Numbered from the stretch's first letter, positions 11,856 to 39,399 are shown. The stretch is 64,000 bases of DNA from Candidatus Doudnabacteria bacterium (GCA_963837465.1 CAWINB010000001.1:501646-565645), one strand, 5' to 3'. The notes: generated by a model from the sequence alone, not told the origin. Made by a program: numbers and translations.

Positions 11856-12470
11856 AAAGCGGCCAAGGATGACTTTTCCATTATTGTATACGAAAACTGG
11901 AAAAACATCCGGACAATTTGGGGCGAGATGGAAAAATACTGGAAGGTAAAAAATATGATTGTTTGGCACTTGCCCAACCGTGTGCAAGGATTTTCCGCTA
12001 AATATAAATTCTTTAACAAGCACGACATTGCCATGGTCGGCAGCGGCGACAGCGACAAAGAATACAATTTGGAGTCTGAAGAAGACGGATTGCAGAACGA
12101 ATACGACACAGCTCTTTACGGCATTTCCGGCAAACCGCAGTGGGAATCGTACGCCAAAGGTAAAAAATATTGCCCGACGGACTTTATTGAGTATGTGGCC
12201 AGTGACGAAAAAAGTTCGGGCCAGGGCGTAATTTTTGGTACCAAACCAATTGAGATTCTCATTCCCTACATTAAGGTATTAACCAAACGCGGCGATTTAA
12301 TTTTGGAACCGTTTGGCGGCAGTGGCAGTACTTTGATTGCCGCAACCAAAATGAAGCGCCGCTGCTGCATTATGGAAAAGTCGTCGGTTTATGCTGAAGT
12401 AATTATTAAGCGCTGGGAAAAGCTCACGGGCCAAAAAGCCCAGCGGATAATAGCAGGAAGGGAAACCTAA
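11832..12470 (+). pseudogene. 5'-truncated ParB-MTase (C-terminal methyltransferase half only)
   Basis: It aligns to residues ~235-450 of the 5540 and 56445 products (IVYENWKNIRTIWGEME...EPFGGSGSTLIAAT) but lacks the ParB domain and the DPPY motif. Confidence 0.6.
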
Positions 12471-12474
12471 AACT

Positions 12475-13017
12475 ATGGATGAACCCAATGACATTGTTAT
12501 GCTTCCCAACCCGGAAGGTAGTGGTAACTATTCCAGCTCCGCTGACATGAAGCAGGATAAGCAAAAAGAGTTGATGGTCGAGCAGCTCAAGAAAACGCCA
12601 ATCGTGCAGGTGGCATGCGAAAAATTAGGAATTGGCCGGAGTTCCTACTACAGGTGGCGGCAAGAGGATAAAAAATTTGAGAAAGATTGTGACGACGCGA
12701 TTAAAGAAGGTCGAAACTTGGTAAATGACGTTGCCGTATCGCAGCTGTTAAGCGCCATAAGAACCGGCAATATGACGGCAATAATGTTTTGGTTAAAACA
12801 TTTTGACGAAAACTTTAAAACCAAAATTGAAATTTCGGGATCAGTCAAGCAGGTACGTGAGGAGCTTACCGAAGAAGAGATGGCTCTTTTTCTTGAGTCC
12901 TTAAAACTTGCCGGCTTTTCCGAAAAGCAAATTAATATTAATTCTAATAAGGAGACAAACGACAATGATCAACCTAGAGAAACTTCCGTTCCTGATCGAC
13001 CCGATCAGGAAAAGTAG
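12475..13017 (+). CDS. terminase small-subunit-like HTH protein (copy 2)
   Basis: GRSSYYRWRQEDKKF HTH signature. Paralogous to the 6879 and 57785 products. Confidence 0.55.
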   Translation: MDEPNDIVMLPNPEGSGNYSSSADMKQDKQKELMVEQLKKTPIVQVACEKLGIGRSSYYRWRQEDKKFEKDCDDAIKEGRNLVNDVAVSQLLSAIRTGNMTAIMFWLKHFDENFKTKIEISGSVKQVREELTEEEMALFLESLKLAGFSEKQININSNKETNDNDQPRETSVPDRPDQEK

Positions 13018-14443
13018 GCTGCTTAGGCGCAAGTTCGCCAAGCGCAGTCACCCTATGTTTTTTCTGCTGTACTTAGCCAAATATATGACTAAGCCCACAG
13101 CAGAGTTTCAGCGTGAAATTTTCACGCTCACCGAAGACAAGAAACTGGACTTTCTTGTCTTAACCGCCTTTCGCGGTTCTGCTAAGTCCACAATCTGCAA
13201 TACCTCACTGGCTATCTGGTCAGTAGTTAGCGGCCGGGCTAACAACATTATTATTGCCAGCCAGACCAGACAGCAAGCCAGACAACATCTAGCGAATATT
13301 AAAAAGGAATTAGAAACTAATGATTTACTCCGCAATGACCTCGGTCCGTTCGAGGAAGAATCGGACGAATGGGGTGCATTCGCGATTACCTTTAAGGATT
13401 ACGATGCCCGCATTATGGCCGTTTCCACCGAACAGGCCATCCGTGGTATGCGCTACAAACAATATCGACCCGAAATAATAATATTGGATGATATTGAAGA
13501 CGTTAATTCTACCAGAACCAGAGAAGCCCGAGAGAAAATATACAACTGGTTTACTTCGGAAATTGTGCCATTGGGAACGCCGGATACCAGAATTATTGTC
13601 CTTGGTAACTTTGTTCACGAATATTCTTTAGTAGGCAGACTGATGGCGGAAATTCAAAGCGGCCAGCGACTTGGTATGTTTAAGCGTTACCCGTTAATTA
13701 ATGACGAAGGTTTGTGCATTTGGCCGGGAATGTATCCGAATGATGCGGCCATTGAAGCCTTTAGGAAAAAAGTTGGCGATGAGGCAACTTGGGAGCGGGA
13801 GTACAAACTTAATATTATAGCTGCCGGAGAAAAGCTAATTCCACTGGAATGGATTAAGTTTTACGAAGAGTTGCCTTCAAGGAAAAAATCGCGCGATTAC
13901 TCTTATACTTCTTGTGCAGTAGACTTAGCAATTGGCGAGAATGAAACCAATGACTGTACGGCTATCGTTTGCGGGCAAGTCCACCGCCCAGACGGCAACC
14001 TGAAAGTTTATATTCTAGCCAATCCCACCAACGCGCGTCTAAATTTTCCTAAAGCCATAGAAGCCATGAAAAATACCCTAAACGTTTTAGGCGAACAAGG
14101 CCGCACCAAAATGTTTATTGAAACCGTAGGTTTTCAAGAAGCCTATTACCAATATATGTTTGAAAACGGTTACAGACAAGTTGAGGGCGTTAAAGTTACA
14201 ACAGATAAACGCACCAGACTTGCGCTTACAACCAAACTGATTAAAGAGGGCGTAATCGTGTTTGCTAAAACTGGTTGCGATGAACTTATCCAGCAATTAG
14301 TTGGCTTCGGCAAAGAGCATCACGACGATTTAGCCGACGCGTTCAGCATGTTAATTATGCAAATCATGAAAGAGCATGAGGAAGGAGCTGGTTTTAGGGC
14401 TTGGCTAAAATTCTGCGAACGGAACGGCGGACCGTGGCTATAA
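12965..14443 (+). CDS. terminase large-subunit-like protein (copy 2, no C-terminal extension)
   Basis: Start placed at MINLEK by alignment to MMLENSG of copy 1. AFRGSAKST, IIILDDIED, and about 75% identity to copy 1 over the core. Confidence 0.7.
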   Translation: MINLEKLPFLIDPIRKSRLLRRKFAKRSHPMFFLLYLAKYMTKPTAEFQREIFTLTEDKKLDFLVLTAFRGSAKSTICNTSLAIWSVVSGRANNIIIASQTRQQARQHLANIKKELETNDLLRNDLGPFEEESDEWGAFAITFKDYDARIMAVSTEQAIRGMRYKQYRPEIIILDDIEDVNSTRTREAREKIYNWFTSEIVPLGTPDTRIIVLGNFVHEYSLVGRLMAEIQSGQRLGMFKRYPLINDEGLCIWPGMYPNDAAIEAFRKKVGDEATWEREYKLNIIAAGEKLIPLEWIKFYEELPSRKKSRDYSYTSCAVDLAIGENETNDCTAIVCGQVHRPDGNLKVYILANPTNARLNFPKAIEAMKNTLNVLGEQGRTKMFIETVGFQEAYYQYMFENGYRQVEGVKVTTDKRTRLALTTKLIKEGVIVFAKTGCDELIQQLVGFGKEHHDDLADAFSMLIMQIMKEHEEGAGFRAWLKFCERNGGPWL

Positions 14444-14505: not shown

Positions 14506-14678
14506 ACTATATTTCCTTTTTGGAAAAAACTAAATTTAACTTTCTCCAACAAGGAGGCAAGGGAAGGATGTGCAGTCCTCCCTTGCCAGCTTGAGTGCGT
14601 AAACTTTTATTTTTGTAGGTCGAGTTTGTGGCTCTCGACCTGTTTGAATTCCGCTGCCACAAAGCGGTTGCCCTTTTA

Positions 14679-15284
14679 TTAGGGTTTGCTGAGCTCGGCA
14701 ACATCTTCTGGATCATTGCCGTTGAACTGGAAGTCCTGTGCCCAGCATTGGCGATGAAGTTCGGTAATGGGGCCAAATATCAGCCCGTCTTCCCGAATTA
14801 ATATCTCTATCGCCGTCTCGAGCGTGTGCCGCTCCTGCCCATACTGGTGCATAGCGGCATATTCGCGGACTGTGGGATGGCCGCCTTGACCTAAGGGCAC
14901 AGCACCGATAAGTGCCATAACCCCTCGAGCAAAAGCGCTGCGCTTGTAAGTTGATGCTCGTGGCATCCGCTCCAGCGCAATCCTATGCAGCTCTCCCCAC
15001 TGTGACGTGGGGAAAACAAACACCAGATGCTGCCACTCTCCGGTCTCCGGATCCTGACCTTCTATGTCAGTCAAGACATCGAACTTCTCAATTATCTTGA
15101 CCTCGACCAGTTCCCCGGATATAAGCCCGAAAACCTCGTGGGGATTGAATTCATCATCCCATGCCCCTTGAACGAAATATCGGGCTCCGCACTCACACTC
15201 GTAAGTGATATTATAGTCTGCCGGAATCTCCAGCTTACGCTGACAGAACTGACAGACTATTTCTGGTAAGTTCGCCCTGTCCAC
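14679..15284 (-). CDS. zinc-ribbon domain protein, hypothetical (last gene of the higher-GC cluster)
   Basis: N-terminal CQFCQRK...YECECGARY Cys4 ribbon. It shares the high GC content of the genes upstream of it. Confidence 0.45.
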   Translation of the reverse strand: MDRANLPEIVCQFCQRKLEIPADYNITYECECGARYFVQGAWDDEFNPHEVFGLISGELVEVKIIEKFDVLTDIEGQDPETGEWQHLVFVFPTSQWGELHRIALERMPRASTYKRSAFARGVMALIGAVPLGQGGHPTVREYAAMHQYGQERHTLETAIEILIREDGLIFGPITELHRQCWAQDFQFNGNDPEDVAELSKP

Positions 15285-15343
15285 TTTTATTCTTCCTTTC
15301 TTGCGCTGGTTGCGCTCCTAGGGTGAAAGGGATTGGAGATAAA

Positions 15344-17230
15344 CTACTGCGCGGCTTTGAGCGCGACAAGAGCGACAGCGGTTGGATTATTCCACGACCC
15401 GACTGTGAAGACCTCGTCACACAACTCCACCGCATACTTCGGATTTCCAGAAGCCGAAACGATGCCTACCACCTTCACATTTTTATCGTGGGCGATGGCA
15501 TACACCGACGGTGCCGGAAAACCACTATCCAAGAAATCCCCGAACACCATTATGGTAGTATTCGGCAGGGCCTGGCGGATAGCCAGTTCAAGCCCTCGAG
15601 CATAGGAAGTACCAAAACCCGGCTGCAGCATAAGAATGCCGTCAATAACGACATCTACATCTGACTCCGGAGTCGGAACAACCACAGCTGGATGATCAGC
15701 GAACACCGTCAACCCAAAGGTTGCGCCCTTGGGTCCGTAGTAAAGAGCAGTGGCTTGTGCCGCAGCCATTGCTGACTGCATCCTGCCCTCGTGCCCCATA
15801 GAACCGCTCGTGTCAAACACGAACAGCAGGTTTGGAGCGTCGGTGCTCACGCGCTTTTGGCGAATTTCGGCGAGGTCGTCAACCGCGCCGCCACTTGCCA
15901 AGGCTTCCTCCATTGTCCGAAGCTCGTCTAACGGAGCTTCAAAGTGGAGACCGCGAAGCAAGTCTACCTGCTCGCCAGCACGGCTCATTGTCTGCGCCCC
16001 GTCTTCCACCTCGTCAAATTGTGAGATAGCTTTAAGAGCGCTTAAATGAGATATGCCTTTGAGCAATCGGTATTCAGGTCCGCCGCGAACTCGATGCTGG
16101 GGAGGGATGGTTGTCCACCGCTCCAACAACTCGATTCGCTTTTCGCCGCTAAGTCCGCGCAAGAGTGGCATCATCTTCACCAACTCCTGTGGGATATCCG
16201 CCGAAATACTTAGCTCGGGCATTCCGTCGCCCTTGCCACCTAAGGCACCGCCGCTAGTCGCCGCACCCGTTTCCGGACTCGGAGAATCTAACTGCACTGC
16301 CTGTTTGATGACTTCGGGTTTCTCGGATTGCACTATTGCCTTTTGACCTCGGACCTTAGCTTCAAAGCTGCCGTCCAGAGCCTTCAGGTCAAACCGTGCC
16401 TGCCCTTGGCTGTTGGCGAGTTCCTGCGAAATTTCACCTGCGGTCTTAATTCCATCCGCAGTCAGAAATTCCTTTGTTGGATCAGAACCAAGTAACTTGG
16501 CTAAGCTCGTGGTGTTAACCACGGCTTTGCCTTGTCCCGGCTCTTTCGCAGGATTTTGCTTTTGCCCTTGCGAGGAAGATTGAGACGAGGTTGAACCTTC
16601 AGCCTGATTTTGGTCTTGATCAGCTTGCGCCGAACTTTGACCTTTACCAGACTTAGGCTGTCTTCTCGACTCCCGGCGAAGACTGGCACAAAAAGATTCT
16701 GTGCTAAAATCAGTATCGCCATTTTCTCCCGAACCACTTTGCGTCGATGGTTTTCCAGGCTTGCCCGACTGTGAAGTGGGTTTGCCTTGGGAATCAGACT
16801 GGGACTGTTTGTCGCCCCCACCTTTCTCGGATGAAGGCTGTGGCTGTCCCGAATCTGAAATCTGACTCTCTACTTCTGCTTGCGCATAGGCTGAATCAGA
16901 CTTTTCATCTTTTTGGTCGCTGCTGTTTGCCTCCGAAGGTTCGCCGGAATTTTCCTGCTGGTTTTCGCCTTCTCCTTGTTCAGGATTAGTTTCATCCGCA
17001 GGATTATCTTCCGATTCCTCTGAAGACTCTCCGTCCGGGCTTTGTGAGCCTGGGGGTGAATCATCATCCGGCGTTGCTCCTCCGGAGGCTGCTAAGGGCG
17101 GTTGGATGTTCCTCCGAACACCTCGTGAAGGATCTTCGTGATCCAAGTGTCGGCAGTTTCTCCGTTCATCGTAACGTCGGGCGTAATTTCCACCCGCCCA
17201 CGATACACACGGCAACCGACGCTGATGCAA
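15344..17230 (-). CDS. von Willebrand factor A (vWA) domain protein with long acidic/Ser/Gln-rich low-complexity N-region
   Basis: MIDAS motif LLFVFDTSGSMG. The N-terminal 138 nt overlap the upstream AAA+ gene, and the true start is uncertain. Confidence 0.7.
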   Translation of the reverse strand: MHQRRLPCVSWAGGNYARRYDERRNCRHLDHEDPSRGVRRNIQPPLAASGGATPDDDSPPGSQSPDGESSEESEDNPADETNPEQGEGENQQENSGEPSEANSSDQKDEKSDSAYAQAEVESQISDSGQPQPSSEKGGGDKQSQSDSQGKPTSQSGKPGKPSTQSGSGENGDTDFSTESFCASLRRESRRQPKSGKGQSSAQADQDQNQAEGSTSSQSSSQGQKQNPAKEPGQGKAVVNTTSLAKLLGSDPTKEFLTADGIKTAGEISQELANSQGQARFDLKALDGSFEAKVRGQKAIVQSEKPEVIKQAVQLDSPSPETGAATSGGALGGKGDGMPELSISADIPQELVKMMPLLRGLSGEKRIELLERWTTIPPQHRVRGGPEYRLLKGISHLSALKAISQFDEVEDGAQTMSRAGEQVDLLRGLHFEAPLDELRTMEEALASGGAVDDLAEIRQKRVSTDAPNLLFVFDTSGSMGHEGRMQSAMAAAQATALYYGPKGATFGLTVFADHPAVVVPTPESDVDVVIDGILMLQPGFGTSYARGLELAIRQALPNTTIMVFGDFLDSGFPAPSVYAIAHDKNVKVVGIVSASGNPKYAVELCDEVFTVGSWNNPTAVALVALKAAQ

Positions 17231-18267
17231 GTGTCCGGCGTGATGACTTCACTCCCCGAAAGGAGCGAATACACAGCCGACTCCTGCAACAAATCGATAT
17301 AAGAACGGGGGCCGGCAACTACCTTAAACTTTCCGGAGAAATCCGTAAAGTTAGGCAATTGCGTTTGCGTGAGCTTCGTCACCGTGGCGCAGCCACGGAT
17401 AATTTGCTCGTCTATATTGAGCAGCCCGCCGAGACCTTTCTCGGCAACGAAACTACGAACGGCCAAAAGGTCGGCCGGGTCGCAATGCGTGACGGACGGT
17501 AAAGTCCGTTTTGCACCGCTGCCAATTCGGCGGAGAACTTCCACGTCTTCGTCGATTGGGAGAAATCCCAGCTCGACAACCGACGTGAATCTGTCCTTTA
17601 CCGAAATCGGAATGGGTTGAGCACTCGGATCATACTTCTTGGTGTTAGCCGTAGCGAACAACGTAAAGTTGAGATCCTTCGTGCCAACACCTTCCACGGA
17701 CACCTGCTGTTCCTCCATGATTTGAAGGAGACCGAATTGTGCCCTTGCAGGCACTTTATCAATCTCATCAAAGTGGAAGAATCCAGGCATTCCTGTTACC
17801 GTGTCTGCGAGGAATGACCGGACGGTTTGAAGTGCGTTTACAAACTGCAAACGTCCTTCGCCATCGTATTCCGACTTCCGCCGAGAAAGAAATTCCTCGG
17901 GCGTCAAGTCGGAACGTCCCTGCACGCGGTCGTAAACCACGTGCCCACCGTTCATTGCGCCCACAAGCTTTGACGCACCCTTCATCAGGGTGGTCTTTGC
18001 GAGGCCCGGGGCGGAGAACACCAACAGGTGTCCCTTAAGCCCGAGAGCCCGACGGAACAGTGCGCAGACCAACGAGTCTTTCAACTCGCTGTAGCCCACA
18101 ACAATCTCGTCCAGTCCCGACCGCAAGGATCGGAACGAATCAACAACGTTCAGTAACTGTTTCATCTTTTTTCCTTTTTGCCCCGACTGCCTACCCAGCC
18201 GGAGCCAATTGAATTTGGTATACCGGCGGGTGTAGGCCCGCCAAAAGCAGAAAGGAACCCCGAACAT
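17092..18267 (-). CDS. MoxR-like AAA+ ATPase
   Basis: Walker A-like SAPGLAKTTLMK and Walker B FFHFDEIDK. It is paired with the downstream vWA gene. Confidence 0.7.
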   Translation of the reverse strand: MFGVPFCFWRAYTRRYTKFNWLRLGRQSGQKGKKMKQLLNVVDSFRSLRSGLDEIVVGYSELKDSLVCALFRRALGLKGHLLVFSAPGLAKTTLMKGASKLVGAMNGGHVVYDRVQGRSDLTPEEFLSRRKSEYDGEGRLQFVNALQTVRSFLADTVTGMPGFFHFDEIDKVPARAQFGLLQIMEEQQVSVEGVGTKDLNFTLFATANTKKYDPSAQPIPISVKDRFTSVVELGFLPIDEDVEVLRRIGSGAKRTLPSVTHCDPADLLAVRSFVAEKGLGGLLNIDEQIIRGCATVTKLTQTQLPNFTDFSGKFKVVAGPRSYIDLLQESAVYSLLSGSEVITPDTCISVGCRVYRGRVEITPDVTMNGETADTWITKILHEVFGGTSNRP

Positions 18268-18432
18268 AGGGGAAACTCACATATTATTTTTTACATAATA
18301 CACGAGTTAAACCAAATATTCAGTTGTCAAAGATCAATCTTGAGTGTTTCAACCCAAGCGCCAGGCGGCTCCTGTTAGGGCAACAGGGCTTTGTTCCCCC
18401 GGTGTCCACCTGGCGTTTAAGTTGAATAAGTC

Positions 18433-18478
18433 GGTCGGGAGAATAAAAGATTGTGCAAATCTTTTATTCTCCCACTCC
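18433..18478. other. perfect 16-bp inverted repeat within the intergenic region of the operon
   Basis: GGGAGAATAAAAGATT-gtgcaa-ATCTTTTATTCTCCC. No U-tract follows on either strand. Confidence 0.5.
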
Positions 18479-18581
18479 GAGTGCTAAACACCGAGATTCA
18501 CGCCTTGCTCGGTTTGGCGACAGGGTTCATGCCTTCTCCTCTATGGCGATCGGTTTTAAATAAAACCGGCAAAATTTTCTT

Positions 18582-18962
18582 TTAGTTTTTCACCTCCTGT
18601 TTTAACCGCTTGCGGAGTTGGGAAGCCAACTGGGCTTCTTGTTTCTTTAAAGCGGTTATAAACTCCCGACGGACATCGTGTCCGTCCGCCGCCGAAACCT
18701 GTTTGCGTTGTTTGAGACAACGTAACAGTTCGGTCAAGCGGTAAGCTTCTTCCGGCGTATCGGGGCCGGAAGCAACGAGCCGAACATCAGCGGCGAACTT
18801 TTCGGGCAACGTCACATAGAACGTAACGTTGCCGAGAGTGATGGCGGTTTTACCCTCGATGCTGACTTCAGAACCGGAGCTTTGCCCCGACTCTTCCATC
18901 ATATCGATTGGCTCGTCGCCATACTCTTCAGATAGAAGGTTTTGCCAATTGAAACTAGACAT
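18582..18962 (-). CDS. hypothetical protein
   Basis: 126-aa ORF whose start overlaps the helicase stop by 8 nt. No recognisable motif. Confidence 0.4.
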   Translation of the reverse strand: MSSFNWQNLLSEEYGDEPIDMMEESGQSSGSEVSIEGKTAITLGNVTFYVTLPEKFAADVRLVASGPDTPEEAYRLTELLRCLKQRKQVSAADGHDVRREFITALKKQEAQLASQLRKRLKQEVKN

Positions 18963-21081
18963 GGCTCACCTCCTGCGAAAGAGCAGACTCGGCAATCCGC
19001 CGGAATCGAGCCTCGGTGACACCGAGGACTCCGGCGACTTTGCCGCAGGTCCCGTTGGGCGGGAAGCCCGTTTGGGACCAGAGCGATTTAGCGATACAAC
19101 GGAGACTGGCGTCGTCAAACACCAACTCACTGTTTTCGCCTTCCTCGCTGATCGGCTTTGCGGCGCCGAATGTCGGGCCGCAGTTGCGGATGATGCGTTT
19201 GACCGCACTGCGCGGAAGGACGGAAGCCAGCTTTGCAGCCAGTTCCACCTGTCCGAACAGGAAACGATCAGCAACATCAGATTTGAATTGCCGCTGGAAT
19301 TCGTCGCTTGCGTTGTTGAAACGCAAGAACGAAAACGTAAGTTCCAGCAGTCGCGAGACGTAATCAACGAGCTCGCGAACAGCCCACGGCACTTTAACCG
19401 TGTAGGCTGTCATACCGAACGTGATCACTTGATCAACGATTTCGGGATCCATCTGCGCCTTATCCCGAAGGACATAGTTGGCGCAGACTTCGGTCAACCG
19501 CCGCACCCAGGTTTCGTATTCGGCGTTCTCGGAGCGACAAAGCTCCTCAATTGCCTTATACTCATCCGGATGCATTCCGAGCCGAGCCAGTCGTTGGCCT
19601 CGGTCGGTGAGCACGATCATCTTGCCGACGGGCATCGCGAATTGCTCCGCGATGAGCCGACGAATGATGCGCTCGAACTGCTCCACGAGTGGCTGGGTTT
19701 CAGCCAGCGTAGAGCCGAAGTAGGTTTGCCGGAGAAACCCAACGAGTTTCTGCGCCGACGTGTAACCGAGCTGCATAAGCCCGGCAACGTGCGACGTAAG
19801 AAAATACTCGTTGTAAAGGCGGCTTTCGATTTTGGAAGCCTTCTGTTTGAGCAGAGACTCCTGAATCTCAACCACCTCAATCTCTGAAGTTGCTACCACC
19901 CAGCCGTAGCCGATGGTATCAAACTGCGGACGGCCTGCTCGACCGAGAGCCTGCCAGAAACGGCTTGCAGAAATGAGCTGACGCTCACCGCCGCCTTCCG
20001 GTTCCTGATGGATGCTCTCGATGATGACGTGCCGGGCAGGGAGGTTAACTCCCTGAACCAAGGTCTCGCAGCACACCACGATTGGAAGTTTTCCAGCCAA
20101 CGCAAGCTCAAATACAAGCTCACGCTCTTGCTGGGAACATCCGCCGTGATGTAGACCGACACCTTTTGGCAACGTAGCCTTAAGTGTGGTCGTAAAGTCG
20201 CCTGCCTCGTTAGGCAAGGACTTCGCCGAAGTTTCCAGTTCGCTATTGCCGTAACCCAGCCTCTCGGCTAAGTGTTCGGCAATTTTTCTCGCCCGCTCCC
20301 GATAAGGAGTGTAGACGAGAATTGGAGACTGGTCGTCGTTGTCGCGGATGTAATCCACAACTTCGGCAACCCGCGCTTCCGTGTTGGCGAATCCGGACAA
20401 TTGGCGGTTAGCGAGACCCTTGTTACCCTCGGTAAAAGCGACGTTGGTAATTTCGTCTCCGTAGTCATTGACATCGGAATCGAAATGCACCACACGAGTC
20501 ACCAAGGGAACCGGACGAACGTCCGACTTGACCACCGCGGCGTTGAGCCAGGCGGCCAATTTCGGTTCGTCCTGTTCGTGAATGGTGGCGGAAAGCCCGA
20601 CGATTCGGACTTTCGGGTAGAGCTGACGCAATTTGGTAATGATCAGCTCGGTTTCCGGATCGAGATTGTGAATCTCATCCAGAACCACCATTGGGCAGTG
20701 ATGCCCGAAGTTGGGGTCGTTGTGGAGGATGACGCCGAGTTTCCACGGCGTTAGAACCCTCATCTGCGATGAACGGAAGCTGCCGATTGAGAGGGAATAA
20801 TCTTTATTTCCCACTCTCACGTTAGCCTCCGGAAACCGCTGACGGAGCCAGTCGGCCTTTTCAAAACACAAGGCACGAGTCGGCTCTACTACCACGCCCT
20901 TACCGGCGATTTCCAAGCCGGTGAATCCGGACTCGGTCTTGCCAGCGCCAGTCGGGGCGATAACTAGGATGTTTCGGTTGGTATCGCGCAACAGGTTTTC
21001 GGCCTGTTGCTGATACTCGTAGAGAGTGATGTTGGGTGTCATACTACTGCACCTCCTCGAGGGTTTTGAGACCCTCGCCAT
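18955..21081 (-). CDS. SF2 DExH-box helicase (Hel308/Ski2-like)
   Basis: Walker A APTGAGKTE, DEIH box (VVLDEIHNLD), SAT-like motif, and motif VI QALGRAGRP. Confidence 0.8.
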   Translation of the reverse strand: MARVSKPSRRCSSMTPNITLYEYQQQAENLLRDTNRNILVIAPTGAGKTESGFTGLEIAGKGVVVEPTRALCFEKADWLRQRFPEANVRVGNKDYSLSIGSFRSSQMRVLTPWKLGVILHNDPNFGHHCPMVVLDEIHNLDPETELIITKLRQLYPKVRIVGLSATIHEQDEPKLAAWLNAAVVKSDVRPVPLVTRVVHFDSDVNDYGDEITNVAFTEGNKGLANRQLSGFANTEARVAEVVDYIRDNDDQSPILVYTPYRERARKIAEHLAERLGYGNSELETSAKSLPNEAGDFTTTLKATLPKGVGLHHGGCSQQERELVFELALAGKLPIVVCCETLVQGVNLPARHVIIESIHQEPEGGGERQLISASRFWQALGRAGRPQFDTIGYGWVVATSEIEVVEIQESLLKQKASKIESRLYNEYFLTSHVAGLMQLGYTSAQKLVGFLRQTYFGSTLAETQPLVEQFERIIRRLIAEQFAMPVGKMIVLTDRGQRLARLGMHPDEYKAIEELCRSENAEYETWVRRLTEVCANYVLRDKAQMDPEIVDQVITFGMTAYTVKVPWAVRELVDYVSRLLELTFSFLRFNNASDEFQRQFKSDVADRFLFGQVELAAKLASVLPRSAVKRIIRNCGPTFGAAKPISEEGENSELVFDDASLRCIAKSLWSQTGFPPNGTCGKVAGVLGVTEARFRRIAESALSQEVSHV

Positions 21082-21823
21082 TCAGCACTCTCTGCGGCCC
21101 GCCAGCCTGAACCACCTCGCCTGGGAGAACATCCCGGAGGTTGATGAATTCAAACGAGCGAGCGTTGCCATTGTTTCCAATGGTGCGCCGAATGTGCTCG
21201 GCGCGAGCAAACGAAGAGACGCGGTCTTTCCGGCGGTCGTAGACCGTGATGCGATTGGCGATATCAATCGCCACCGCACCGGTCACCTCCCGTTCGGGAA
21301 GACTGCCGAGCATCACCACGACGTTGCCGCTGAACAGGACTTTATCTTGCTGTCCTTCCCAGCGAATATCGTAGCGGCTACCCGGCGTTGCAATCCACCA
21401 TACCCCGTTTTCATTCACCCCCTCAATTTTGGCGATAAACGCCGGTTGGGGGTTAATGATGGGCTCGGCTCCTTTCGGGCCGATGGTGAACCGCAGCTCT
21501 CCCTTCAGGTCTTTGACTTCGCCCGCGTCATGCGGGTAAAGACGAACCATCAGGTTGTCGCGCGACCGGCACTTCTTGCCGGTTCCGGCGTCGATGAAAT
21601 CGACGGCGGCCTCACTCTCCGCATGTAGCCGGTAAACTTCACCGGCCAAGGGGCGCTGACGATCGCGAATTTTCAGCTTTGACGGGAACATTCCCGCATC
21701 GCCGCTAATCGCAAACGTCGTCAGCTTCAGAACGTCCCCTGCCTTCATGTGCTGCGGGGGACACAAGCGGAGAGATTGAATCAGCTCCGCGGAAATCGTG
21801 ACAAAGGCTGTGTAGCGAGCCAT
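21044..21823 (-). CDS. hypothetical protein overlapping the helicase start, possible nuclease partner (HamA-like?)
   Basis: AAGGAG RBS 6 nt before the ATG. A possible PD-(D/E)xK arrangement (VDFID ... GEVKD). It overlaps the helicase gene by 38 nt. Confidence 0.4.
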   Translation of the reverse strand: MARYTAFVTISAELIQSLRLCPPQHMKAGDVLKLTTFAISGDAGMFPSKLKIRDRQRPLAGEVYRLHAESEAAVDFIDAGTGKKCRSRDNLMVRLYPHDAGEVKDLKGELRFTIGPKGAEPIINPQPAFIAKIEGVNENGVWWIATPGSRYDIRWEGQQDKVLFSGNVVVMLGSLPEREVTGAVAIDIANRITVYDRRKDRVSSFARAEHIRRTIGNNGNARSFEFINLRDVLPGEVVQAGGPQRVLNGEGLKTLEEVQ

Positions 21824-21843
21824 GACAACTCCTTACCCGAAAT

Positions 21844-21972
21844 TCAGACCCTCGGGACCGGGGGAAAGTAAGCCAATACTACGCCACCTTCGGCATTGAA
21901 CACTAGCCGGGGCGGATTATTTTTGAGCTGTTCCAAGGCGGCTTCAAAAGCCGTCTCGTCTTTCTCTTTCAT
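21844..21972 (-). CDS. possible small ORF (42 aa)
   Basis: Hand-translated MKEKDETAFEAALEQLKNNPPRLVFNAEGGVVLAYFPPVPRV, with an AGAGGTG RBS. Weak evidence. Confidence 0.2.
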   Translation of the reverse strand: MKEKDETAFEAALEQLKNNPPRLVFNAEGGVVLAYFPPVPRV

Positions 21973-22027
21973 GACACCTCTTGTCCGATATTTCCATTTG
22001 AACCGTCGGACTGCGGGTCAATGCCCT

Positions 22028-22942
22028 TTACTTTCCCTTTTGGGGATCGTATTGGACAAGCCTGCCTTCGGGAATTTTTACGCGGTCTTTATTGTTAACA
22101 TTGACCACGAAAAACCCCCGCTTCCTAGACTTGAAAGCTGTTTCGGGTGTTATCCCAAACAGGTCTGCCAAGGCCTTCCCGGGCTTTCCTTTTTCTTCTT
22201 CCGTCAGATATACAACCCCAACGGCAGTAAGTAGGCCAGAAGCTTTAAAGTCAGGATGAAACCACCCCAACCTCTTAGCTCTCCAAGCGGCACTGCGAGA
22301 AATGTTGTAGCCTTTCGACTTCAACTGCTCCCACAGTGGATCTAGGGAAAGTTGCCGTTCGGCTTCGGTTAGGATTATCCGACCTGCTTCATCAGCAGGT
22401 TTGGATTTGCCAGCCATAAGCCGTTTTAGGCCACGAGCCATATTGATCCGTTTGGTCTGGTTAGGATCGGTTCTCTCCTGAAAAGGAAAAATCTCCGGGT
22501 CTTCCCCAACCATTTCGCGACAGGCCGCAACCATAGACTTTATTTGCGTCAGGAGTGCCGTAAAGGCAACATCCTTTTCTTCCGCAAGCTCAGCCACAGT
22601 TGATCCGGTTAGCCATTCAAGAAAGAGCTTATAGGCATCTTCCCCAAAGGCTTCCTGGACTATTATGGCGACCAGCGACCAAAGTTCTTCAATAATCGCG
22701 ATCCTTTCGGGATTGCGAAAATCAGGAACATACTTGGCCTCGATGTCAGTAGGTCGCATATCATCAGCACCCGGCAGGGCGGAGAATTGCTTCTCACCCC
22801 ACAAAGCACCGACCCTATCCAACCGGTCTTCCAGCTGCTGGTCTTGGTAAAGAGCAGTGATTTCATCACTCCTCTTTTTCTGTTCGGCCAAAAGTTGCTT
22901 GCGTTGTTGGCGCAAGGTTTCTTTAACGTTTTGCAGCGTCAT
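22028..22942 (-). CDS. hypothetical protein, first gene of the higher-GC minus-strand cluster
   Basis: 304-aa ORF with the same elevated GC as the genes downstream of it. No recognisable catalytic motif. Confidence 0.45.
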   Translation of the reverse strand: MTLQNVKETLRQQRKQLLAEQKKRSDEITALYQDQQLEDRLDRVGALWGEKQFSALPGADDMRPTDIEAKYVPDFRNPERIAIIEELWSLVAIIVQEAFGEDAYKLFLEWLTGSTVAELAEEKDVAFTALLTQIKSMVAACREMVGEDPEIFPFQERTDPNQTKRINMARGLKRLMAGKSKPADEAGRIILTEAERQLSLDPLWEQLKSKGYNISRSAAWRAKRLGWFHPDFKASGLLTAVGVVYLTEEEKGKPGKALADLFGITPETAFKSRKRGFFVVNVNNKDRVKIPEGRLVQYDPQKGK

Positions 22943-24271
22943 TTTCTATCCTCCTTTCTTGAGCGTCAGGTTCTAAGACCTTAGTGCCCTGGAGGATGTG
23001 GACTCCACTATATATAGAGGCCATATCCTCCAAAGCATCGCTAAGAAAGAAGTTTGCACTATTGATTCTTTTTTTAAAGAACAAAATTTGGCAAAATAAA
23101 AACCCTGAAAAAGCTTCAGGGCTTAAATATTATTGCCAAACTTCAGACCACAATTATTTTATGGCCTAAAGAGTAGGGGCGAGAAAGTTGAGTAGACTTC
23201 TCGCCCGATTTGCACCGGGCTAAGTTTTTAGACTTGCTTCAGTGCGAGTGAGTGTAAGTTGGTTTCAATCCCTTCTAACGAGGACCTTATCTATGGCTCT
23301 GACTAACTAACATCAGAGTTGCAATTAAAACCATTGCTGCCAGCAAAGCAGCTCCTTGAAAGAATTAGGAATGATTCCAAAAAACTTCTTTCAAGATTGA
23401 GAACAAGAGAGTTTCAATCACTCGTCCGTCCGAAGACGGACTTGCCGTCTTCTCACCCAAAGGTGAGGACCGACCCCGAATGGGGCATTGATTGAGCTTA
23501 CTCTGCTGGCAGCGTGGTGGTTTTGTGATTTTGACTTAAACTTGCATCCCTGTAAATGGACAGTTTAGACTTTCACCAAACCACAACGCTGACAACAAAG
23601 ATCTTATTAGCTATTATCCCTCTTTAAAATTTAAATGAACTTTACGATAGTTCTCACTATGCCCTGTAAATATAGCAAGGACTGTTCCCCGCGTTTTCTA
23701 GAAATTTGGCCAATCGGACAGGTATCTTGGTTTTTGATATCTGATGATTTAATTGACCAACATTTTTTTGAAAATGCAGGGTGCACTCATTGCTAGGTAT
23801 CGGCAAGCGGCCAGAGGCGTCCCTCCTGTAAGGGACACCACTAAGCACTTTAATAACTTAACCGGCTTTAGCGGAAAGTCGCTCTTCCCAAATATTTCTA
23901 CTTGAGACGGGGATGTCTTTGGGGTTATTCACTCCCATCGCTATCCTTTAAGCAAGACTTTGTGATGTAAAGAACTAACTCTCCTCTGCACCGTCCCTTG
24001 CGGGACAGTGGTTTAATGGAGAGGAGACTGAAGGGGATGTTCCCGGTAAACTTCTATGGGCAAAGTTTATAAGGCTTCCCTTCATTCCTCTCTCCGTTAG
24101 CTATTTATTTGTTAAGGTGCTTTGCTTGGTTTTTTATGTTGACTAAACAGTATATACCTAAATACTCAAAGCGTCAATACTATGCTGATAGTAATATAGC
24201 CCATTTATGATTATGCCTATAAATAAATACCTATTTTTGGCTTATTTTCATATATAAGTGTCAGAATAGAC

Positions 24272-24300
24272 TTGACAACATTCTAAAAAGGGTATATAAT
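24272..24300 (+). promoter_or_regulatory. consensus sigma70 promoter
   Basis: TTGACA, a 17-nt spacer, then TATAAT, ending 24 nt before the 24325 ATG. Confidence 0.55.
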
Positions 24301-24324: not shown

Positions 24325-25134
24325 ATGGAAATCCCAAATATCGCCAAATACTTAGAAATCTTTGAAAAATTAGGCCTAAATAAGAACGAGGCCCAAATTT
24401 ACGAGCTTTTGCTTAACTCCGGCCCATTAGGCGTAAAACCCATTCTTTTTAGAACAAAGCTAAAAAGAGGGAACGCTTACTATCATTTAGATAGCCTAAA
24501 AGCTAAAGGGTTAGTGGAAACTCAGACAGAGCGTGGTAAAACCATATTTATTGCCAAACACCCCGAACAGCTAGAGCTGCTTTTGGCACAACAAAAAGCC
24601 GCCTTAGCGGCGGCGGAAGAAGATCTGCATAAAACCTTGCCTGGCTTACGGAGTATGTTTCAACTAGCCACTACTAAACCGGGGGTAAAGTTCTTTGAGG
24701 GCAAGGACGGGATTATCCAAATTTACGAAACCTTGCTGGCACAAAGCCAAAGTATTGATAGTATAGAAGACAAAGGGGAGATGGTTGGTTTTTTTGCCGA
24801 TTATGTTAAGGAGTTTATTGCCAAGCGCATTAAGCAAAAAATCTTTAACCGGGTTATCGCGCCTTCTGCCAGCCCCATTAATGTAAGTTCGCCAAAGGAA
24901 TATAGGGAAGCTAGGTTGTTGCCAGCGGGGCAATTTCCTTTCCGCATGGATATTAAAATTGTCGGTAACTTGGTTTCTTTAATCTCTTTTCAAAAAGATA
25001 ACCCTGTAGGTATATTAATTGAAAATAAGGAAATCGCAGAAAACTACAAAATGCTTTTTGAATTGTTGTGGAAATTTCTTGAGCCGAAGACTGGGTTAAG
25101 AACCACGCCTGCTCAAACCTCAAGCGGCCAATAA
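24325..25134 (+). CDS. TrmB-family transcriptional regulator
   Basis: N-terminal TrmB wHTH (LGLNKNEAQIYELLLNSGPLGVKPI) and a C-terminal TrmB-like sensor region. Confidence 0.65.
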   Translation: MEIPNIAKYLEIFEKLGLNKNEAQIYELLLNSGPLGVKPILFRTKLKRGNAYYHLDSLKAKGLVETQTERGKTIFIAKHPEQLELLLAQQKAALAAAEEDLHKTLPGLRSMFQLATTKPGVKFFEGKDGIIQIYETLLAQSQSIDSIEDKGEMVGFFADYVKEFIAKRIKQKIFNRVIAPSASPINVSSPKEYREARLLPAGQFPFRMDIKIVGNLVSLISFQKDNPVGILIENKEIAENYKMLFELLWKFLEPKTGLRTTPAQTSSGQ

Positions 25135-28122
25135 AGTTTGGCTAGCTCTTTCTGCCGTCCTACCAGTTTTGTCTAAACTTTGCAAATATTGTGTATCTTG
25201 CATTACTTCCTTTAACGGTTTAATTTCAAAGCCGGGCAATTTAAATTTTTCAGCTAAATTTTTAGAAGATCCTTGTTTGGTGACAATCATAGCCAATGGC
25301 ACACGGTCTTGTCTTAAGTCTTGTCCTTCAAAGCCCGGGCCTAAAACAACCAAGGCCTCGAAAGGTTCGCGTTTTTGCGATAACACCGATTCAAGTTCAT
25401 GGAAACGATAGTAGTACCCGTCTAGGTCGCGGATGCTGTCGTCTATAATTACCCCTTGTGAAGCCATTCTGTCTGTTAAGTTGCTTAGAAATTCCGTATA
25501 TTTTTCTCCGCTGGCAAAAACGGTAGATCTTGTTGCTAATTCAACATCCAACTGATTTGGCAACAGGCGTTTGATATCGGATAAATCTCCAATCATAACG
25601 TTGGCCGGGAAAGCTTGGATGAATTGATGATAATCGGCTTCTTGCCAGTTTGGCCTCAAGTAACCGGTAATATTATTTTCTAAAGCATTTTTAGCCTTCT
25701 GAAATGCTGGTGATTGGTCGGCAACTTGTATTTTATAAGGATAAGTCGTGTTGCCATTAGCGTCACGAACGCTGGTTTGGTCAGGAACGGCTTGAGCCAG
25801 ACGGAGATTTTCCTGTATTTGAGGTAGAATGGTTTTTAAGGCATTAATATCAGTAGCCAAAGACTTTCTGTATTCAGGATTATAAGAAAAATTATCTTTT
25901 GAGGTTTCACCTTTAGCAACTACAATACATTTATAAATAAAGTCCGCAAGTCTACTTCTGTCTTCGGCGCTTAATTCTAACCCTGTTGCAGCTTGTAGGG
26001 CTTCAAAGTCAATTAACTTTTCAACTACTGACGCGAGAGGGTAGTAAATTTTATCCGATAGGGCTAACTCATTATATAAATTGGCCAAACCCGCCCGTGC
26101 GCGTTCTTCTTTACTAACTCCGCTTCCAGGCCCTATTTCCAAAAGTTTTTGGTTGGGTTTTTGAGCGGATTTTTCTTTTAGAAAACCTGCGAGGTCAATA
26201 CCAAACCTTCTGTCATAGTCAGCCATGCTTCGGTCTACACGCCAATGAATTTCCGGAATCGGTTCCAGTCTGCCCATTCGGGCCAGTGTAGATAAAGTAA
26301 TGGCTCGTTTTTCAGGATCCTTGAGCAGGCCAGCCAAAACCAACGCTTGCTGACTTTCAAATTGAGATAAGTCAACTTCTTTTCGCTCCAACAGGTAAGC
26401 AATATCTTTAAATTGTGAACGAATGACTTGTTCATCCGGTCGGGTTTGTTGTAACTCAGCAACAAAACGGTTAACGGAATCTACAGATAAAGTTTTACTT
26501 CTTTTTAATTCTCCACCCAACTCTGACAGAAAATCTTTGGCACGGGACATTAATGAACTTTCTATATCTTGTTGGCTGTAATGAACGCCAGGATACTTTT
26601 GCCGCATTTCTGTAAACGCCGTAGCCGCGGTCTGTTTAGCAGCGTCTAAAAATTCATTATAAGTTGTAAAAATTGTATTCGCGGTATTTTTTTGTTTCCC
26701 AAGCTCTAAAATGGCGTGGCCTAAGTTAGTATCGTAATCCAAAGATAGAAAAGTCCTAACGCCCGGCAAACCATATTGTTTGGCAAATTGAGTCAGTTTT
26801 GCTTCGCTGGTTTTTTCCAAAAGTGCCCGTGCCAAAACGAGCTGCTCGGCCCAAGGCAGGTTGTGAATTCCAATGCCCGCTTCCTGAAAAAAGCTAGTGA
26901 CTTTTCCCAAAACAAATTCAGGATCGTCTAAAGGCCTGAGCCGTTTATAATATTCGGCAGGATTTTCTCCCAACCTAGGTTTTAAATAGCTAGTAATAGA
27001 ATATTCTCTTACCCGATCTTTCATTTGCTTCCCCCCTATAATAGTATTCGTGGAAACATTCTTTGCTGTTGGTTCTTGTCCTCGTTCAATCAAGCGCCGT
27101 TTAACAGATTCCTGAATTTGCCCTAATTCTTCAGAACCTAAAAGAGGAAATGTTGCAACTATAGTTTTCTTTCCCTGTTCTTCTTTAACGATTGCGGCTG
27201 TTTGTTTGTCTAAGAGCCTTGCGGTCATGTGTTCAGGATCAATTTCTATACCTGTCCCTACTAATTTTTGTCTCCCAACATAATAATTAGCATATTGTCC
27301 GTCAGCATTGGAGAAAGAAACGTTTGGAGCTTTAGGGTTTAACCTTCTTTCATGTACATTAAACTCCGCTGCGGTCCGACTGCCAGCCAAAACACGAAAA
27401 TCAGATCTTTGCAACAGTCCTCCTTCCAGCAAATGTGGTAAATACTTAGTTGCAAACTTTAGAGGGTTGCCATCAAAACTTAACAATTTTTTATCTTCCA
27501 CGGTCTGTGGCTTTATACCCGCGAATTCATGAATCATAGAGGCGCTAAAAGGTACGCGCTGGCCACTAACCGGATGGGTTACTATTAGCCTGCCATCATT
27601 ACCTCGTTCGGCTTGCCATTTGCGAAGTGTGGTCGCAATGGCCATTTCGGCTAAATTAACTTGCTCTCCAGAATCCAAAACAAATGCTCCCGTCCACGAT
27701 TGATGTTTTTGTCCTAATTCCCAGGGTTCCAATAGGGCGGATTTGTTTCGCTCTGCATAACTATTCTGTCCTGTTGCCAACAAATCTTCCACATTTGCTG
27801 GCGTTGCCATCACAGGTCGCGCTATAGCTTTTTCGGCCGGAGTATTTTCTGTTTCTGATTTTGCTAAGCCGTTTGTGGAAGCTAAGACTCTTACCATATC
27901 AGGTTGCGTCATTTTTTTACTTGCGACATATATTTCATCTCGGGATGACCAATGCTTTAATTTTTCAACATCAAAAACAGGCTGTCCTGCTTCATAAGCC
28001 AGAACGCCGTATTTAGCCAAGCCTGCCAAAACACCTGCTTTGGTTTTTTCCTGTCCCTTAGGTTGTTCGGCAGGATTGGTTTGAATTTCAGACTCTGCTA
28101 CCGAACCATATTCAGCTCTCAT
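25120..28122 (-). CDS. large hypothetical protein (1000 aa) with an internal Rossmann/SAM-MTase-like motif
   Basis: LLEIGPGSG resembles SAM-MTase motif I. The rest is unrecognised. Convergent with the TrmB gene. Confidence 0.45.
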   Translation of the reverse strand: MRAEYGSVAESEIQTNPAEQPKGQEKTKAGVLAGLAKYGVLAYEAGQPVFDVEKLKHWSSRDEIYVASKKMTQPDMVRVLASTNGLAKSETENTPAEKAIARPVMATPANVEDLLATGQNSYAERNKSALLEPWELGQKHQSWTGAFVLDSGEQVNLAEMAIATTLRKWQAERGNDGRLIVTHPVSGQRVPFSASMIHEFAGIKPQTVEDKKLLSFDGNPLKFATKYLPHLLEGGLLQRSDFRVLAGSRTAAEFNVHERRLNPKAPNVSFSNADGQYANYYVGRQKLVGTGIEIDPEHMTARLLDKQTAAIVKEEQGKKTIVATFPLLGSEELGQIQESVKRRLIERGQEPTAKNVSTNTIIGGKQMKDRVREYSITSYLKPRLGENPAEYYKRLRPLDDPEFVLGKVTSFFQEAGIGIHNLPWAEQLVLARALLEKTSEAKLTQFAKQYGLPGVRTFLSLDYDTNLGHAILELGKQKNTANTIFTTYNEFLDAAKQTAATAFTEMRQKYPGVHYSQQDIESSLMSRAKDFLSELGGELKRSKTLSVDSVNRFVAELQQTRPDEQVIRSQFKDIAYLLERKEVDLSQFESQQALVLAGLLKDPEKRAITLSTLARMGRLEPIPEIHWRVDRSMADYDRRFGIDLAGFLKEKSAQKPNQKLLEIGPGSGVSKEERARAGLANLYNELALSDKIYYPLASVVEKLIDFEALQAATGLELSAEDRSRLADFIYKCIVVAKGETSKDNFSYNPEYRKSLATDINALKTILPQIQENLRLAQAVPDQTSVRDANGNTTYPYKIQVADQSPAFQKAKNALENNITGYLRPNWQEADYHQFIQAFPANVMIGDLSDIKRLLPNQLDVELATRSTVFASGEKYTEFLSNLTDRMASQGVIIDDSIRDLDGYYYRFHELESVLSQKREPFEALVVLGPGFEGQDLRQDRVPLAMIVTKQGSSKNLAEKFKLPGFEIKPLKEVMQDTQYLQSLDKTGRTAERASQTLLAA

Positions 28123-39398: not shown

Positions 39399-39399
39399 A

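Follow-up and report, generated by a model that had tools for sequence, protein, structure and literature searches.

Why should one run of genes be richer in GC than the genome that carries it? The question is raised by a 64,000-nucleotide stretch of a Candidatus Doudnabacteria genome (GCA_963837465.1 CAWINB010000001.1:501646-565645; hereafter the window), in which a block of minus-strand genes encodes a superfamily II (SF2) helicase resembling Hel308 and Ski2, a MoxR-type AAA+ ATPase adjoining a vWA protein, and several smaller proteins. A preliminary description of the window had taken the block for a cluster recently acquired from a donor of higher GC content. The comparison with related loci points to a different answer: the block is probably a single accessory operon that is conserved and rare, and of which no description was found in the libraries and literature searched. 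Its GC-richness would then be a lasting trait of the operon itself, not a trace of recent import.

GC content of the operon and its age

Direct counts give a GC content of 53.4% at positions 14580-23000 and of 42.5% for the remaining window, in agreement with the GC-rich block in a low-GC background that had been described beforehand (all positions are those of the whole 64-kb window). With a 1-kb sliding window, the GC content is 50-57% between ~14.5 and 23 kb, as against 33-48% over most other parts of the window. Windows of 200 nt place the rise at ~14.65-14.70 kb and the drop at ~22.95 kb, near the edges of 14.6 and 23 kb proposed earlier, and a two-breakpoint segmentation of the whole window has its optimum at 14701-22800 with a log-likelihood gain of 174. 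The 8.4-kb window with the highest GC content of the 64 kb begins at 14601. The deviation extends to the coding level: per-gene GC at third codon positions (GC3) is 0.50-0.69 in the seven minus-strand open reading frames (ORFs) and 0.29-0.57 in the other genes of the window, and the amino acids GARP make up 27.7% of the block and 20.9% of the flanks, with FYMINK at 21.5% and 31.9%, respectively. The pooled GC3 is 0.62 for the operon and 0.45 for the flank genes, a value in which the vWA gene was taken one base out of frame (GC1-3 permuted, for that gene only); the per-gene values are unaffected. The long plus-strand ORFs of the interval show the swapped GC1/GC3 profile of antisense shadow frames, and all real genes lie on the minus strand, both of which had been recognized before. 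The number of genes is smaller than the eight previously given, namely seven ORFs, or six genes if MoxR and vWA constitute one recoded gene. Chromosomal-type genes immediately to the left of the window (ABC transporter, YceI, SnoaL) average 43% GC, so that AT-rich islands do not by themselves account for the 42.5% background. At 48.5-55.5 kb, the GC content rises again, though less strongly, to ~50%. The block and its immediate neighbours comprise the following features.

14679-15284, minus strand: g201, last gene of the operon (201 aa; ORF GC 0.53), with an N-terminal CxxC...CxC zinc-ribbon-like motif
15344-17095, minus strand: vWA reading frame, an acidic, Ser/Gln-rich linker followed by a C-terminal vWA domain with a DxSGS metal ion-dependent adhesion site (MIDAS)
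17095-17098, minus strand: predicted -1 slip site C_CCU, directly 5' of the MoxR stop codon UAG (17094-17092)
17092-18165, minus strand: MoxR-type AAA+ ATPase, 357 aa from a probable start at M35 of a 391-aa ORF, with Walker A GLAKT and Walker B FHFDE
18166-18581, minus strand: structured spacer between g126 and MoxR, with a mini-ORF, a long hairpin and a UUGAAAC hairpin
18582-18962, minus strand: g126, small partner protein (126 aa) with a disordered acidic N-terminus followed by a beta-hairpin and helices
18955-21042, minus strand: Hel308/Ski2-like SF2 helicase, 695 aa; probable start 1 nt past the g259 stop, ORF open from 21081
21044-21823, minus strand: g259, family-specific protein of 259 aa, translationally coupled to the helicase, with an all-beta N-domain and a conserved C-terminal VYDRRxDRxSSFARAE...FEFINLRD motif
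22028-22942, minus strand: g304, the operon's first gene, probably encoding a DNA-binding protein; helix-turn-helix (HTH)-like segments are seen in orthologues
23090-24140, minus strand: low-GC structured RNA (leader or non-coding), bounded by a promoter-like site at 24177-24149 and, at its 3' end, by a hairpin plus U-run resembling a terminator (23124-23100)
23405-23494, minus strand: RNA motif R1, inside the leader, with three hairpins and a UCAAU/AUUGA closing helix
24325-25134, plus strand: TrmB-family winged-helix regulator (TrmB 47.2 bits, cut-off 25.6), low-GC and divergent from the operon
25120-28122, minus strand: g1000, 1000 aa, a low-GC conserved neighbour convergent with TrmB

A GC step was also observed at loci of relatives (L001-L171 denote the other loci or contigs compared, mostly operon loci of relatives). 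Around operons with helicases that are 43-75% identical, the rise amounts to +10 to +19 points, and at two loci both edges are visible.

L088: flanks 42-48% GC, operon 54-63%
L008 (Kuenenbacteria): flanks 34-44%, operon 48-57%
L094: flanks 31-43%, operon 50-58%, falling back to 34-42%; both edges visible
L092: flanks 29-39%, operon 48-57%
L002: flanks ~52%, operon 59-65%
L168: flanks 41-50%, operon 52-62%, falling back to 41-44%; both edges visible
L004 and L096: flanks 66-70%, operon the same; no step

Pooled GC3 values for operon and flank in five relatives' loci are 0.67 and 0.48, 0.60 and 0.37, 0.64 and 0.41, 0.55 and 0.27, and 0.76 and 0.51, and overall the operon holds about 52-63% GC (GC3 0.55-0.76) in hosts of 33-52% GC. 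The step is accompanied by the same low-GC neighbours. TrmB adjoins the operon in six contexts (the window, L001, L002/L003, L008, L088, and L094), and orthologues of g1000 lie beyond it in the same position in L008 and L088 (47-49% identity), which gives three loci with the window. In the window, the GC content of four-fold degenerate sites is 0.59-0.78 in the operon genes and 0.37-0.49 in TrmB and g1000. When the comparison is restricted to four-fold sites of conserved residues, the window matches L008 at a fraction of 0.31-0.33 (saturation would give 0.26-0.28) and L088 at 0.42-0.44 (saturation value 0.28-0.35), and yet the GC content of such sites stays at 0.58-0.84. Such synonymous turnover with a retained GC excess beside low-GC neighbours is contrary to what would be expected of a recent import that has not ameliorated. 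Because the step and the low-GC neighbours recur, and because near-saturated four-fold sites are still GC-rich, we regard the GC excess as a long-standing trait of a mobile, recombining operon, and the local excess in the window is therefore not evidence of recency.

The view of the preliminary description, in which the whole block was recently acquired by the host genome from a higher-GC donor and is not yet ameliorated, is accordingly unlikely. It draws on the joint deviation of GC, GC3 and amino-acid composition from the host, on the surrounding accessory region with its many recombinases, terminase-like modules and defence genes, on the varying contexts of the operon, and on the existence of high-GC versions (L004 and L096). 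These versions, however, form a sister clade with fused genes in a neighbour-joining tree of the helicase, which does not polarize the fused and split forms and in which the placement of L092 is unreliable. The copies closest to that of the window, with helicases 91%, 79% and 75% identical, are as rich in GC and, where their flanks are visible, lie in low-GC surroundings, and a search for nearest taxa with the helicase led to metagenomic, Kuenenbacteria, Falkowbacteria and Chloroflexi sequences and to no evident high-GC source. Tetranucleotide usage, which had been proposed as a check, shows no distinct signature: the GC-normalized TETRA z-scores of the block correlate with the rest at r=0.45, within the 0.35-0.64 of other 8.4-kb segments, a length at which the comparison is low in power. 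The window contains no tRNA, and no integrase borders the block, the nearest recombinase being 5 kb off and not syntenic in relatives. The left edge and the candidate right edges share no att-like repeat of at least 11 nt except A/T-rich 11-12-mers, and the edge of the block next to a terminase (TerL)-like gene has no homology to the paralogous TerL modules A and C. In consequence, an insertion of 14.4-41.5 kb as one piece into a TerL/LOOT module is unproven. No close relative of the helicase occurs in IMG/VR, and matches among PLSDB plasmids and INPHARED phages reach at most 27% identity.

Acquisition as such is a different matter from its date, and this part of the earlier view holds, in that the block is a mobile accessory unit of mosaic structure, found in varied contexts and unlike its host in composition. 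About 50 full-length relatives of the helicase were found with 39-91% identity, nearly all of them metagenomic. Among 185,579 species-representative genomes, true relatives are limited to a Candidatus Kuenenbacteria and a Candidatus Falkowbacteria metagenome-assembled genome (MAG), and one relative among NCBI proteins comes from a Chloroflexi MAG. The gene order, a ~300-aa gene, a ~260-aa gene, the helicase, a ~125-aa gene, MoxR and vWA, is kept (L001, L002/L003, L004, L005, L008, L088, L094, L168, and L169), and the outer neighbours vary: TerL in the window, HicAB in L168, HEPN/MNT in L094, VapC-like PIN genes in L092, and rpsT/holA in L001. The helicase half of the window is nearest to L005 (80-95% at the amino-acid level), whereas its MoxR is 87% identical to that of L169, 82% to that of L088 and only 76% to that of L005, and its vWA domain is 91% identical to that of L168. 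Relative to L008, the helicase shows 41-44% identity, and MoxR and vWA show 65-68%. Since the two halves thus rank the relatives differently, they have different histories, and the spacer between g126 and MoxR appears from these alignments to be their recombination joint. Taken together, the data support the idea that the operon is an accessory, horizontally mobile unit that recombines between variants; of all that horizontal transfer would imply, ongoing exchange between carriers has the strongest support.

Two points limit the case for a standing GC excess. The host background was taken from about 80 kb, consisting of the window and ~17 kb beyond. At loci that lack TrmB/g1000 synteny, GC-rich variants that had diverged beforehand could conceivably have reached each host separately and recently. 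The excess may be maintained by continuing gene flow, by a GC bias linked to recombination, or by selection.

The MoxR/vWA pair and a predicted -1 frameshift

The two genes of the 3' half of the operon show the features of a MoxR/vWA pair. MoxR matches AAA_3 with 42.6 bits (cut-off 27), above the gathering score and with Walker A and B motifs, as well as AAA_5 and, in the Protein Data Bank (PDB), the MoxR-like structure 2r44 (9e-10); its start at M35 was chosen from the gene calls of relatives. The adjoining vWA frame matches VWA_2 with 37.4 bits (cut-off 27) and VWA_CoxE with 30.3 bits (cut-off 26.4), and its translation contains the MIDAS motif DTSGS. This frame is open from 17248 and overlaps the 3' end of MoxR, and it offers no usable start near the MoxR stop: ATG, GTG and TTG occur only far upstream, where the translation is not conserved.

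The arrangement is general among the ten loci with unfused genes (the window, L005, L169, L001, L088, L168, L008, L002, L094, and L105). The vWA sequence lies in the -1 frame of MoxR in all ten, with overlaps of 16-157 nt, and the first ATG, GTG or TTG of the vWA frame is found 198-417 nt past the MoxR stop or not at all. The context of the stop is kept as CCC-U(C/U)R-NUA-RCC-UC, which in the MoxR frame reads C_CCU_(CRN)_UAR. The codon preceding the proline ends in C in all loci, though it encodes D, N, R, H or G, and the proline of the slip site is invariably CCU. Furthermore, conservation of the -1-frame peptide P-[SL]-[LVIA]-[AT]-[SP] begins exactly at the slip codon, 5' of which only the MoxR frame is conserved. 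The C-ending codon, the invariant CCU and the onset of peptide conservation argue for constraint at the nucleotide level at this site.

In five relatives (L004, L092, L093, L096, and L097), MoxR, linker and vWA are joined in single in-frame ORFs of 916-1084 codons. The conceptual slip product of the window, with 357 + 583 = 940 aa and the junction peptide ...GGTSNRP-LAASGGATPDDD, is colinear with these natural fusions, and both contain the linker motif (S/W)F(L/C)AxLR(R/Q)E, which in most loci lies in the start-less part of the frame. On the basis of the -1 frame in 10 of 10 loci, the lack of a nearby start, the conserved C_CCU and the five in-frame fusions, we predict a programmed -1 frameshift, by which the vWA frame would be translated solely within a MoxR-linker-vWA fusion of 940 aa, making up its C-terminal 583 aa. 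The sequences thus predict a pair resembling ChlI and ChlD from MoxR and vWA. Two findings weigh against the prediction. The canonical X_XXY_YYZ heptamer is found only in L008 (A_AAC_CCU) and, upstream, in L002 (C_CCU_UUC), and is absent in most loci; moreover, no conserved downstream stimulator of frameshifting was established. In the literature naming both frameshifting and MoxR, no account of frameshifting in a MoxR/vWA pair was recognized in titles and abstracts.

Programmed -1 frameshift systems such as dnaX (tau/gamma), the phage tail chaperones G/GT and CsoS2A/B are similar in that two products share an N-terminus, that the overlap is kept across divergent relatives, and that some lineages have a plain fusion. 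They differ from the window, in which the predicted frameshift product is the long form and the site is a single P-site slip candidate, C_CCU, at 0-1 codons before the stop. With respect to the products, the resemblance to Mg-chelatase ChlI/ChlD (BchI/BchD) is one of architecture only, a short AAA+ subunit and a long one consisting of AAA+, an acidic/Pro-rich linker and vWA (integrin I). The sequence similarity is weak (20.6 bits for the cobaltochelatase model TIGR02442, cut-off 779), and neither a ChlH-like porphyrin subunit nor any other large chelatase subunit (ChlH/CobN) is found in any locus. In addition, ChlI and ChlD are encoded by paralogous genes, whereas the two forms of the window would share one N-terminal ATPase via recoding.

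The MoxR/vWA chaperone pairs RavA-ViaA, CoxD-CoxE, NorQ-NorD and CbbQ-CbbO likewise consist of a MoxR-clade AAA_3 ATPase adjoining a vWA protein with an intact MIDAS. For such pairs, the general model summarized in PMC7159879 is that the vWA domain holds a partner, which is remodelled at the expense of ATP. The pair of the window differs from them in its location in a helicase operon without a metallo-enzyme client and in a vWA part without its own start, apparently made by -1 frameshifting, or by fusion in relatives; it matches no NCBIfam or PADLOC family. The MoxR-vWA ternary conflict systems of Kaur et al. 2020 have a third, VMAP-type component with effector and sensor domains, and the helicases named there are SWI2/SNF2-type, type I restriction-type and SF1, not Hel308-like, with no mention of TrmB (PMC7159879).

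The helicase, its partner proteins and structured RNAs

The helicase contains the Walker A motif APTGAGKT, a DEIH box and the motif VI QALGRAGRP, and matches DEAD (72 bits) and Helicase_C (40 bits) above their cut-offs, in addition to ResIII. Its RecA1/RecA2 core with the DEIH box resembles that of the Hel308/Ski2-like helicases, and the best PDB and NCBIfam matches span residues ~20-520: Hel308-type NCBIfam models match with 1e-41 to 2.5e-55, and ASCC3, Slh1, Hel308 and Brr2 in the PDB with 1e-34 to 3e-46. Archaeal Hel308 proteins, with 24-30% identity, are the next matches after the ~50 relatives of its own family. However, the scores of 142-188 bits are far below the equivalog cut-offs of 887-1216 (NF040935 and related models), and thus below membership. 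The precomputed Pfam lists of the family lack PF20470, PF21280 and PF14520, the winged-helix/ratchet and helix-hairpin-helix families that archaeal Hel308 carries; the PDB alignments reach residue ~510-550, and the C-terminal ~200 aa are family-specific. Another difference is that the helicase is always coupled to g259 and g126.

A second likeness is that to the Hachiman and Shango defence systems, since the SF2 helicase is related to HamB (PADLOC 1e-23) and SngC (3e-15) and is preceded by a ~260-aa gene in the position of HamA. This generic similarity makes the helicase the only protein recognized in the PADLOC scan, and the helicase fits Hel308 models better than HamB models. The operon has no TerB protein. 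Membership in Hachiman was considered and rejected: there is no HamA (DUF1837) nuclease gene beside the helicase, and g259 matches no HamA/DUF1837 model and has a predicted fold that is not PD-(D/E)xK-like.

The partner proteins are specific to the family. g259 matches nothing in Pfam, PHROG, PADLOC or NCBIfam, and only 11 relatives were found among 5.8 billion 90% clusters and 25 among 1.84 billion 50% representatives; its N-domain is modelled by AlphaFold2 (AF2) with a confidence (pLDDT) of ~85. A small ORF (102-140 aa) is always found 3' of the helicase in every long-enough locus, including L004 and L006, although a word-based search with g126 found only five homologues. Orthologues of g304 are present in L005, L168, L088, L002, L094, L095, L099 and L104. 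Weak HTH matches were obtained for the g304 orthologues of L001 and L168 and no Pfam-type domain match for g304 of the window itself, so that its designation as an HTH protein is a deduction from the orthologues. g201 matches no family in Pfam, PHROG, PADLOC or NCBIfam, and a homologue was found only in L088 (48% over 97 aa); its place is taken by Cas6 in L002/L003 and L008. The two proteins are unrelated. PDB matches of g201 to designed Kelch repeats are short repeat artefacts, and PDB sequence searches with g304, g201 and g1000 yielded nothing meaningful. g1000 also has no match in Pfam or PADLOC.

The interval between g304 and TrmB is a 1.4-kb low-GC stretch, in which a leader segment of 476 nt at 23085-23560 folds with a z-score of -10.4. 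The region 22929-23930 is 85% identical to that of L005, and 124 predicted pairs include 11 compensatory and 7 one-sided changes and no broken pair. No Rfam family matches the leader. Within it, the 88-nt element R1 has the conserved junctions UCGGUC, GACGGCAA and AGUGAUUGAAAC. In an alignment of the window, L005 and L168, 98.5% of the cells are paired, compared to 31-56% with slid partners, and eight pairs are changed on both sides. A covariance model of R1 finds it upstream of the operon in L005 and L168 and twice in L088 (E 1e-9 to 1e-10). On the other side of the leader, the TrmB gene has a perfect TTGACA-17-TATAAT promoter at 24272-24300 on the plus strand.

The spacer between g126 and MoxR is also structured. 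Its minimum free energy has a z-score of -8.7, a 38-nt palindrome at 18437-18473 forms a long hairpin in addition to the UUGAAAC hairpin, and a four-sequence alignment contains 25 pairs with compensatory changes. The mini-ORF at 18530-18498 on the minus strand has ten codons (MNPVAKPSKA) and a Shine-Dalgarno sequence, and lies 52 nt past the g126 stop. It is kept in L005, L168 and L169 with synonymous changes (consensus MNPVA[KR][PS]SKA). The combination of a structured spacer and a conserved mini-ORF suggests that expression of the MoxR half may be under the control of a leader peptide encoded by the mini-ORF.

Possible function of the operon and its surroundings

Our best guess from the gene content and surroundings is that the operon is a nucleic-acid conflict system, active in defence or in the maintenance of an element. 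The guess is based on its location among restriction, GmrSD, diversity-generating retroelement (DGR) and toxin-antitoxin genes and on Cas6 near AUUGAAAC hairpins in some relatives. In the mechanism that we propose, the helicase and its coupled partners g259 and g126 would form a nucleic-acid-handling core. The MoxR gene would be decoded in two ways, with normal termination giving the 357-aa ATPase, and a -1 slip of tRNA-Pro on C_CCU (CCU to CCC) beside the stop giving the 940-aa protein of ATPase, acidic linker and vWA. The short and long forms could then build a two-tier AAA+ ring like that of ChlI/ChlD. The MIDAS domain of this ring would bind a partner, for which the helicase complex is the likeliest candidate, and the energy of ATP hydrolysis would serve to remodel, load or license it. 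TrmB and the structured RNAs would control the expression of the operon. In its full form, the proposal is tentative and we would not favour it over all others: an unrecognized conflict system of CPR/Patescibacteria (CPR, candidate phyla radiation) and Chloroflexi, with a Hel308-like helicase complex run by a fixed-ratio, frameshifted AAA+/vWA motor, with structured RNAs that are Cas6-processed in some lineages, and with a GC-richness kept up by an active process, such as a GC bias linked to recombination between exchanged variants.

Several results count against this proposal. The AF2 models of g259 and g126 (the latter with a pLDDT of 69) have no fold match in the PDB, and, as neither these two nor g201 has a recognizable fold, no effector such as a nuclease is identified. 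MoxR, vWA and the small proteins match none of the PADLOC defence models. The covariance search with R1 gave nothing convincing outside the sub-clade with at least 69% helicase identity. No Cas6 gene is present in the window or in 25+ other loci, and the AUUGAAAC 9-mer, found twice in the window against 0.8 expected, is not enriched.

The occurrence of Cas6 in relatives brings up the related possibility that the operon is a CRISPR-derived or Cas6-dependent RNA-guided system, in which the upstream hairpin-AUUGAAAC RNAs would be Cas6-processed guides and the helicase would act like Cas3. The Cas6 genes in question, each the last gene of the GC-rich operon, are the following.

L002, 15630-16760: Cas6
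L003, 13921-15050: Cas6
L008, 15968-16849: Cas6

Those of L002/L003 and L008 match PF10040 with 2e-14 and 9e-11, respectively, and are homologous to each other over their full length (1e-19). In L002/L003, two hairpin-GGGNAUUGAAAC units, 62 nt apart, follow 3' of Cas6, and non-coding segments of the operon contain hairpin-AUUGAAAC units in the window, L005, L168, L088 and L089/L090. TrmB, moreover, weakly resembles the winged HTH of Csa3/CasR. Nevertheless, we consider guide RNAs improbable, given that the many loci without Cas6 include the window, which has no CRISPR repeat-spacer array either, that the AUUGA of R1 is base-paired in the closing helix and is not a free 5' handle, that L008 lacks the motif on the operon strand though it carries Cas6, and that Cas3 models match the helicase only marginally.

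The neighbouring genes suggest yet another explanation, namely that the block, with a replicative helicase and an accessory ATPase, serves an integrated plasmid or virus as a module for replication or maintenance and is linked to the adjacent terminase or to the serine recombinase at 28.2 kb. The TerL-like gene at 12908-14443 abuts the block and the large serine recombinase lies 5 kb beyond it, JGI annotates relatives of the helicase as 'replicative superfamily II helicase', an archaeal-virus helicase PHROG matches at 6e-50, and MoxR has a weak match to the P-loop of MCM. We regard this explanation as very improbable. By tblastn, TerL and the recombinase adjoin the operon in no relative examined; there is no Rep, primase, capsid or portal gene; the viral, phage and plasmid collections hold no close counterpart, as described above; and in several loci the operon lies among chromosomal genes (rpsT/holA in L001 and secDF/tgt in L006).

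Returning to the proposed conflict system, the block is ordinary as a GC island, and as a system it has two novel features open to testing, namely a MoxR/vWA motor predicted to arise by frameshifting and the RNA motif R1. If the prediction is true, the former would be a new bacterial programmed -1 frameshift by which one MoxR gene gives a two-subunit motor, with the natural in-frame fusions as controls. R1 would represent a structured RNA family not described before and associated with a helicase operon. The gene set is very rare, occurs in poorly understood CPR bacteria, and may represent a new mechanism of defence or element maintenance. It also raises the evolutionary question of what holds one operon 10-19 GC points above several different hosts.

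The surroundings of the operon in the window comprise three TerL-like modules with ParB-methylases, two serine recombinases, type III restriction, GmrSD, a DGR and a ThiF/E1-like gene. The three TerL-like genes are on the plus strand at 7341-9413, 12908-14443 and 58209-59738, and the 690-aa and 511-aa TerL proteins are encoded by sequences with 69% nucleotide identity over 719 nt. Four copies of the LOOT RNA (RF03000) score above the gathering threshold (9585-9713, 41569-41684 and 60508-60628 on the plus strand, and 55679-55809 on the minus strand), two of which lie just 3' of TerL-like genes in paralogous modules of ParB-methylase, small protein, TerL, LOOT, a ~155-aa protein and DUF4357 (5540-11138 and 56445-62046). 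The GC-rich operon is bordered by a third such module, which is truncated (11832-14443). Because no portal or capsid genes were recognized nearby, the modules look terminase-only and not like complete prophages.

A stretch with the character of a defence island and 33-43% GC (35415-40815 and 29858-35406, both on the minus strand) encodes a GmrSD-type protein (PADLOC HEC-05, 6e-135), type III res and mod, and a 1224-aa protein without a family match. The DGR occupies 48515-55491, with its variable repeat at 51048-51159, template repeat at 51412-51523 and reverse transcriptase at 51847-52902. The 3' end of an 885-aa AAA_5 gene matches the 112-nt template repeat upstream of the reverse transcriptase, with 13 of the 14 mismatches at adenines of the template. 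Next comes the gene of a transglutaminase-vWA protein (52915-55491), and the whole coincides with the second block of ~50% GC. To the right of the window (L170), the accessory region continues with a serine recombinase, an EcoRI-type methylase and GmrSD-HNH at 41% GC, and to the left (L171) ordinary chromosomal genes begin at 43% GC. Finally, a 40-nt palindrome at 29671-29710 (90% complementary), directly past the end of the 28211-29644 serine recombinase gene, may serve as a terminator or as a site of recombination.

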